Origin: Shigella phage sb4
Length of the DNA stretch: 64,000 bases
Sequence record: PQ666542
Reading direction: 5' to 3' (one strand)
Positions within the stretch are counted from its first letter, which is position 1. The number at the start of each line of letters is the position of its first letter. Shown one piece after another: positions 33,590 through 34,549 of the stretch. The translations under genes and the position numbers were made by a program. The notes under the pieces are model-generated. The model was not told the origin of the DNA. It saw only the letters and a program-made list of their open reading frames with translations, and ran no database searches.

Positions 33590-34549
33590 TCACTTCCACT
33601 GCATTTCGCATGCTAATTGAATGAAAAGATATGCTAAATGTAATTCAGTATAAGCCGCAATTCCATGATACTGGTTATTTTCACCAACAATTTCATACAT
33701 ACGAATAATACTTTGCGGAGTTACGCGTGTATAGATTTCTTCGGCAAGTTTACCTACGAACCACGAATAATCAGCTGCATATTTTGGCGCTAAAGCTCTG
33801 AGTTGTTTAACATCTTAATTTTTGAGAGATTCATGAACATCATCAATAGCACCACGATCGTTAGTAACCAGTGATAAAATACCAGCATCCAAAACACCTT
33901 TAGATAAATAACTATCGAGCTCGCCAATAGTTTTACGAAAATCAGGAAAATTCTTTTTAACCAAAGCTGCTACAACTTTCATATCAGCTATAGCAATTCC
34001 TTCATGCTTGCAGATTTCAGTCAATCGACGAATCATCTGCTTCATCATTTCAATTTTATCTTCATCGGTCGGTTGACCGAATGTAATAACTCGGCAGCGT
34101 GACTGAAGCGGTTTAATAATACCATCAATATTGTTAGCAGTAATTATAATACTACAGTTTGAACTATAAGCTTCCATAAAGGAACGAAGATGTCGCTGAG
34201 ACTCTGCTAACCCAGAACGGTCAAATTCATCAATAACGATTACTTTTTGACGACCATCAAATGAAGCTGCACTAGCAAAATTAGTCAAAGGACCACGAAC
34301 GAAATCAATTTTACAATCTGATCCATTCACAAACATCATATCAGCATTTACATCATGACACAATGCTTTTGCTACAGTTGTTTTACCTGTTCCTGGAGAA
34401 GGAGAATGAAGAATAATATATGGAATTTTACCTTTACTTGTAATATATTTAAAGGTTTCTTTATCAAAGGCGGGAAGAATACATTCATCGATAGTAGATG
34501 GACGATATTTCTGTTCAAGAATGTGTTCTTTTTCATTTACAGTAATCAT
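33590..34549 (-). CDS. 44: clamp-loader ATPase gp44; in-frame TAA at 33815-33817
   Basis: 320 codons = T4 gp44 319 aa; Walker [15 protein letters not shown] box. Confidence 0.85.

Follow-up and report, generated by a model that had tools for sequence, protein, structure and literature searches.

An in-frame ochre codon in clamp-loader gene 44 of a T4-like Shigella phage record is very probably a sequence error

Gene 44 and its in-frame stop codon

The sequence analysed here, a stretch of 64,000 nucleotides from the record of Shigella phage sb4 (PQ666542) that we call the window, carries clamp-loader gene 44 on its minus strand. Translation from 34549 to 33590 gives TAA at codon 245 (33817..33815). 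The upstream piece begins with the ATG at 34549 and comprises 244 codons, from MITVNEKE to DDVHESLKN; in the list of open reading frames it begins at a TTG at 34564 (249 residues), the start homologous to that of related genes being the ATG at 34549. On the 3' side of the TAA, 74 sense codons ending in CEMQWK lead to a natural TGA (33592..33590), and the codon positions thus add up to 244 + 1 + 74 = 319, the length of T4 gp44. A sequence-only reading of this DNA had described a gp44 frame that ends with ESLKN at an in-frame TAA at 33815–33817 and is followed by 75 open codons; the minus-strand translation bore out both the stop and the residues preceding it, and the frame is indeed open to 33590, but with 74 sense codons, the figure of 75 including the terminal stop.

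The identification of the gene as that of clamp-loader gp44, also proposed in that reading, is supported by Pfam, by the phrog_168 profile, by alignment with T4 gp44 and by synteny. Codons 1–244 (33818..34549, minus strand) encode the AAA+ ATPase module, with a GTGKT Walker A motif, and the Gp44 lid, matching Pfam AAA with 63.9 bits and Gp44_lid with 113.8 bits (both exceed the cut-off), phrog_168, and residues 1–244 of the structures 3U5Z and 8UNF. Codons 246–319 with the natural TGA (33590..33814, minus strand) encode the entire Gp44 C-terminal domain: the 74 residues past the TAA match Gp44_C as a complete domain with 114.3 bits, positions 240–314 of the phrog_168 profile, and the same two structures. 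T4 gp44, the AAA+/RFC-like large subunit of the clamp loader (PDB 3U5Z, 3U60, 3U61, 8UNF and 8UK9), aligns with the interrupted translation from end to end (1–319, E-value 2e-209), with an X at position 245 where T4 has lysine, and has the same Pfam order of AAA, Gp44_lid and Gp44_C. The T4 gene order 45–44–62–regA–43 is likewise present, as judged from the open reading frames and from the projected annotations of pSs-1, sb2, T4 and KNP5. Given a Gp44_C match of 114 bits and a residue-by-residue alignment with T4 gp44, the open frame past the TAA is not a product of chance; it is the remainder of gp44, as the earlier reading had held. The C-terminal domain is encoded, but the TAA at codon 245 separates it from the ATPase, with which it is contiguous in all relatives.

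We also considered a split gp44 whose second part is made by translational restart, and found this unsupported: the list of open reading frames holds no in-frame restart frame of at least 40 residues past the TAA, and the first in-frame ATG lies about 40 codons 3' of it and is, by eye, without an obvious ribosome-binding site.

Comparison of gene 44 with its relatives

Codon 245 is AAA in all 12 aligned relatives (T4, pSs-1, KNP5, sb1, sb2, sb3 and six IMG/VR contigs), and this lysine codon has become TAA through one transversion, A>T at 33817, that is private to the window. A search with the 81-mer around the TAA found no identical sequence among 374 matching phage records; the best match, that of ERS-1, has the same bases as the window wherever there is natural polymorphism and differs only at 33817 and 33834. 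The second of these, as shown by the ERS-1 alignment and codon comparison, is another private transversion in gene 44 (minus strand), 17 nucleotides upstream of the TAA, that changes CTT to CAT (L239H). The exact 33-mer containing the TAA had no matches in viral, genome and metagenome contig collections, and an exact-protein lookup of the 244-residue truncated gp44 returned no match. Eight gene 44 codons are private to the window; two are synonymous and six change the protein (K245*, S35Y, H44Y, S215L, L239H and N300Y), the latter falling at sites that are invariant in the 12 relatives. From T4 gp44 the window differs in having TAA instead of AAA at codon 245 and in five private missense changes. 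Homologs ending at ESLKN were sought, and there were none among those examined, so that the claim of an interrupted gp44 stands.

Premature stops in other genes of the window

When the annotated CDSs of pSs-1 were projected onto the 64-kb window, we found 36 premature stops made by substitution (31 TAA, 5 TGA and no TAG), 28 of them lying in the first 50 kb and 8 in the last 14 kb; of the ~124 genes projected, 29 are affected. The genes that carry them include those for topoisomerase gp52, rIIA (two stops), dda, modA, gp43, gp62 (two stops), gp44, gp47, nrdD and endonuclease VII, and the codons replaced are GAA, AAA, TTA, TCA, CAA, GGA, TGG, CGA, TAT and TTG. The sequence-only reading could be taken to imply an event specific to gp44, be it recoding, readthrough or a pseudogene of some informative value; this implication is not supported, as stops of the same type recur in so many genes and belong to an unselected layer of substitutions, described below.

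Two neighbours of gene 44 illustrate the pattern in the pSs-1 projection. The DNA polymerase gene 43 (29880–32576, minus strand) has GAA>TAA at codon 178 (32043..32045), and gene 62, for the small subunit of the clamp loader (33025..33588, minus strand), has two premature stops, GGA>TGA at codon 45 (33456..33454) and TCA>TAA at codon 143 (33162..33160). Gene 62 contains 12 private codons, none of them synonymous, and a hot patch at 33077–33176 (codons ~138–171) holds 10 private transversions within 100 bp, each of which either replaces an amino acid or creates a stop. These changes were found in none of about 500 database records, all of which are 90–95% identical to this stretch; a divergent natural allele acquired by recombination was rejected on account of this lack of sharing, and the hot patch probably marks a locally low-quality stretch of the assembly.

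Private indels are few, at a ratio of private substitutions to private indels of ~60 : 1. About five were found (at 16841, 18284, 20045 and 45309, and also at 42932): insertions of T (within a T-run), of AT and of G (within a G-run), and deletions of C and of G. The genes thrown out of frame are srd, modB, mrh and nrdD, and one further indel lies in the tail region. Of the natural terminators, two are lost, by TAA>AAA at 10990–10992 and TAA>CAA at 12907–12909, which lengthens a goF-like and a motB.2-like open reading frame, respectively, and these losses stem from the same noise process as the stops.

Two of the stops have counterparts in sister genomes. That at codon 35 of imm (29207–29209, TCA>TAA) is common to sb1 and sb2 and is found neither in sb3 nor in the other relatives, and that at codon 152 of a dCTPase/NTP-pyrophosphohydrolase-like gene (21152–21154, GAA>TAA), by which the last ~20 codons are lost, is found in sb2 only. 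Both could be genuine variation within the Kolkata lineage, but a shared artefact or a cross-sample effect could equally lie behind them.

The distribution of the stops bears directly on programmed recoding, in which the gp44 TAA would be reassigned, read through or, in the manner of T4 gene 60, bypassed, and full-length gp44 would be made. The likeness to phage stop reassignment and readthrough, and to the gene 60 bypass that provides a T-even precedent, lies in the in-frame stop followed by an intact protein continuation, the frame 3' of the TAA being perfectly preserved. The window differs from such systems, however, in that its stops are unconserved (the gp44 stop is conserved in no relative), replace nine amino acids (E, K, L, S, Q, G, W, R and Y) and comprise both TAA and TGA, while TAA is still the main natural terminator, ending 56 of 94 projected genes. 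A bypass of the gene 60 type is further contradicted by the absence of an inserted gap, gp44 showing a length difference of 0 from pSs-1, and the preserved downstream frame is just what remains when a point change is spurious or has happened very recently. The 64-kb window contains no tRNA genes, the T4-type tRNA cluster lying outside it, and the TMC4 tRNA anticodons, among those listed in the available part of the published description of this phage, are ordinary sense anticodons (PMC11993411). We regard recoding of gp44 as exceedingly improbable.

T4 genetics has classically made use of nonsense mutants of gene 44, and a conditional-lethal ochre mutant grown on a suppressor host is another conceivable source of the TAA. 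The lesion, one AAA>TAA change, is of the type expected of such a mutant, but the background is not wild type, containing 35 further stops, about five frameshifts and ~300 private transversions per 50 kb; in addition, provided that the phage is TMC4, it was isolated from the environment, in lake water (PMC11993411). The chance that the record represents such a mutant seems to us negligible.

A layer of unselected substitutions

Over its whole length (1..64000) the window carries ~0.5% private, transversion-biased substitutions, or ~1 per 200 bp. We counted singletons, i.e., bases found in no other genome, in a leave-one-out comparison of 19.2 kb covered by at least eight relatives, and the window had 160 (57 transitions : 103 transversions) as compared with 54–92 in ordinary genomes, in which transitions dominate; pSs-1, for example, had 55 (47 : 8) and UViG…500 had 60 (52 : 8). 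In the same 19.2 kb the private transversions of the window fall on the three codon positions in the proportions 31/29/36, and 80 are non-synonymous (73 missense and 7 nonsense) against 16 synonymous; the private changes of the control genomes are third-position and synonymous, with no nonsense changes. The differences between the window and pSs-1 divide in a similar way: those common to sister genomes are transition-dominated (e.g., 266 transitions : 34 transversions), and those not in sister genomes are transversion-dominated (322 transversions : 255 transitions). The near absence of excess transitions in the window is just the reverse of what natural divergence shows.

If the 302 private transversions that the window has in its first 50 kb are placed at random in coding sequence, 27.9 stops are expected (19.3 TAA, 4.7 TAG and 3.9 TGA), versus 28 observed; as the observed number equals the random expectation, nonsense changes have not been filtered at all. 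The spectrum of these 302 transversions is strand-symmetric, with 73 A>T and 79 T>A, 62 C>A and 48 G>T, 19 A>C and 16 T>G, and five C<->G. Their density is 16–43 per 5 kb throughout the window, and they are overdispersed (index of dispersion 1.6–2.2), a clustering that looks like local drops in data quality.

The absence of TAG among 36 stops is unusual. We rejected a frame-specific avoidance of TAG, as this trinucleotide is under-produced in every frame (made 8 times versus 19.2 expected over all frames, P about 0.003) and AAG likewise (4 times versus 17.7 expected); the frame-independent context bias explains much of the absence. Errors induced by glucosyl-hydroxymethylcytosine next to the miscalled base were also considered and found to be unsupported, as counts of neighbouring bases showed no enrichment of C or G beside private transversions; this idea is further weakened by the literature that we found, which concerns problems of nanopore sequencing with hypermodified phage DNA only, when the likely source of the data is Illumina.

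Sister genomes and the published gene table

The window belongs to a Tequatrovirus (T4-like) and is collinear from base 1 with sb2 (PQ666540) and pSs-1 (NC_025829), with about 97.2% identity to each over 50 kb and ~18 gap openings; collinearity from base 1 extends to all of sb1–sb3 (ADG1, AKR2 and CDR3). As sb2 and pSs-1 themselves differ by ~2.4%, most differences between the window and these genomes are ordinary mosaic variation. According to the Kolkata study, the record analysed here, PQ666542, is that of TMC4, one of four lake-water phages together with ADG1/sb1 (PQ666539), AKR2/sb2 (PQ666540) and CDR3/sb3 (PQ666541); all four genomes were assembled with SKESA from Illumina NovaSeq 6000 data on PCR-amplified Twist libraries, Prokka served for annotation, and the CDS counts are 291 (TMC4), 285 (ADG1), 255 (CDR3) and 254 (AKR2) (PMC11993411).

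In the TMC4 gene table of that study, several products appear more than once: topoisomerase II (002/003), rIIA (014/015), ADP-ribosylases (four entries, 032–035), DNA polymerase (059/060), SbcD (071/072) and the clamp loader, with entries 062/063 (PHROG 225) and 064 (PHROG 168) directly before gp45 (065). Single entries are given for primase, gp41, gp42, gp46, the topoisomerase large subunit and dexA (PMC11993411). As to which of these genes are split and which are intact, the window is in exact agreement with the table. In our profile searches the gp62 fragments of the window matched phrog_225 and its gp44 fragments phrog_168; the window is presumably the first 64 kb of TMC4, and TMC4_064 presumably the truncated gp44.

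The genome of ADG1/sb1 (PQ666539.1) resembles the window in having an excess of unselected transversions, with 93 private transversions in 19 kb, six of them nonsense, distributed 42/20/27 over the codon positions. It is annotated in fragments, including those of topoisomerase (three pieces), dda (three), rIIA, modB, gp41, gp43, gp46 and nrdD. Its noise spectrum differs, being made up of G>T (51) and C>A (25) as opposed to A<->T plus C>A/G>T in the window. The sb2 genome is mildly affected, with gp43 annotated as two pieces and two nonsense singletons. As sb1 independently has the same defect, the problem belongs to the data set and not to one phage.

These comparisons are relevant to a corruption of the sequence after assembly, for example through patching against a reference, through format handling or through mutations introduced deliberately in silico, as opposed to an error of the sequencer. 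Such a process would account for a genome start coordinate that is the same as that of the collinear pSs-1 and for substitutions far exceeding indels, and the gene names used by the authors were transferred from pSs-1, which suggests reference-guided processing. A simple random mutator, however, would not produce the non-uniform spectrum, the trinucleotide context bias and the clustering, and the different spectrum of sb1 (G>T/C>A) is what sample-specific chemistry would give. We consider corruption after assembly very unlikely.

Origin of the substitutions

Genes 43, 44, 62, 52 and 47 are essential in T4, and a phage with nonsense codons in them forms no plaques. As the window has nonsense codons in all five, its changes cannot represent a propagating genome. 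The reading that we favour is that the gp44 TAA arose by an error in base calling or in the consensus, the assembly being of low quality, which we hold to be very probable from the biological implausibility of the alternatives; the real phage almost certainly carries AAA (Lys245) and a normal 319-residue gp44. Judging from its published description, TMC4 was presumably isolated as plaques (PMC11993411). A natural mosaic backbone similar to pSs-1 and KNP5 would, on this explanation by error, be overlaid by ~1 erroneous substitution per 200 bp; the errors would be mostly A<->T and C>A/G>T transversions and blind to reading frame, and with AAA, GAA, TTA and TCA common in an AT-rich genome they would often yield TAA.

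The alternative is that the sequenced DNA itself contained the substitutions, for instance because the template was heavily damaged or mutagenised or because defective genomes were propagated by complementation at high multiplicity; gp44 would then be truly ochre in that material. Errors and unselected real mutations are inseparable from sequence alone, the stop count is at the neutral expectation under either reading, and the stops in imm (29209) and in the dCTPase-like gene (21154), which recur in the sister phages sb1/sb2, may be genuine. A load of ~36 nonsense changes in 64 kb plus ~0.5% missense changes is nevertheless incompatible with a plaque-forming clone, the excess consists almost purely of transversions, unlike replication errors or the natural divergence seen here, and the patchy clustering resembles local data quality. 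We think it very unlikely that the substitutions were real in this sense, and we infer that the noise is technical and was not present in the DNA. A more radical version, that of a T4-like lineage or population tolerating dozens of ochre and opal codons in its essential replication genes, gp44 among them, by very efficient readthrough or by obligate co-infection and complementation, has in our estimation a very slim chance of being correct.

A de novo Illumina/SKESA consensus does not normally have 0.5% substitution errors, which weighs against the reading by error. In two-colour Illumina chemistry, A<->G and C<->T miscalls require that both channels be flipped; the near absence of excess transitions agrees in part with single-channel two-colour miscalls, although these do not predict the rarity of C<->G. 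Hypermodified DNA read at a very low effective depth may plausibly have contributed, as may a patching of the assembly with pSs-1 as reference.

Consequences for use of the record

If the explanation by error is right, as we think very probable, the gp44 TAA is a sequence-quality artefact without biological significance, and the record of the window and at least that of ADG1/sb1 (PQ666539) contain ~0.5% unselected substitution noise. This noise would split about a quarter of the genes, inflate the CDS counts (291 and 285 versus ~255) and yield spurious truncated and duplicated proteins. Scans of the window for pseudogenes, recoding, split genes or small ORFs would then give false positives of the same origin, and other findings of in-frame stops from the window should be discounted jointly.

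Further features of the backbone

Beneath the substitutions, the backbone is without the split genes 39/60 of T4 and the gene 60 bypass element, and without the T4 homing-endonuclease and intron insertions mobA, segF, segA, mobB, mobC and I-TevII. The large subunit of topoisomerase II (8285–10105) is encoded in one open reading frame of 606 residues, as it is in pSs-1. Finally, there is a dispersed direct repeat of 67 nucleotides, in which 54571–54637 of the window matches ~3226–3292 of sb2 and pSs-1 with 98.5% identity.
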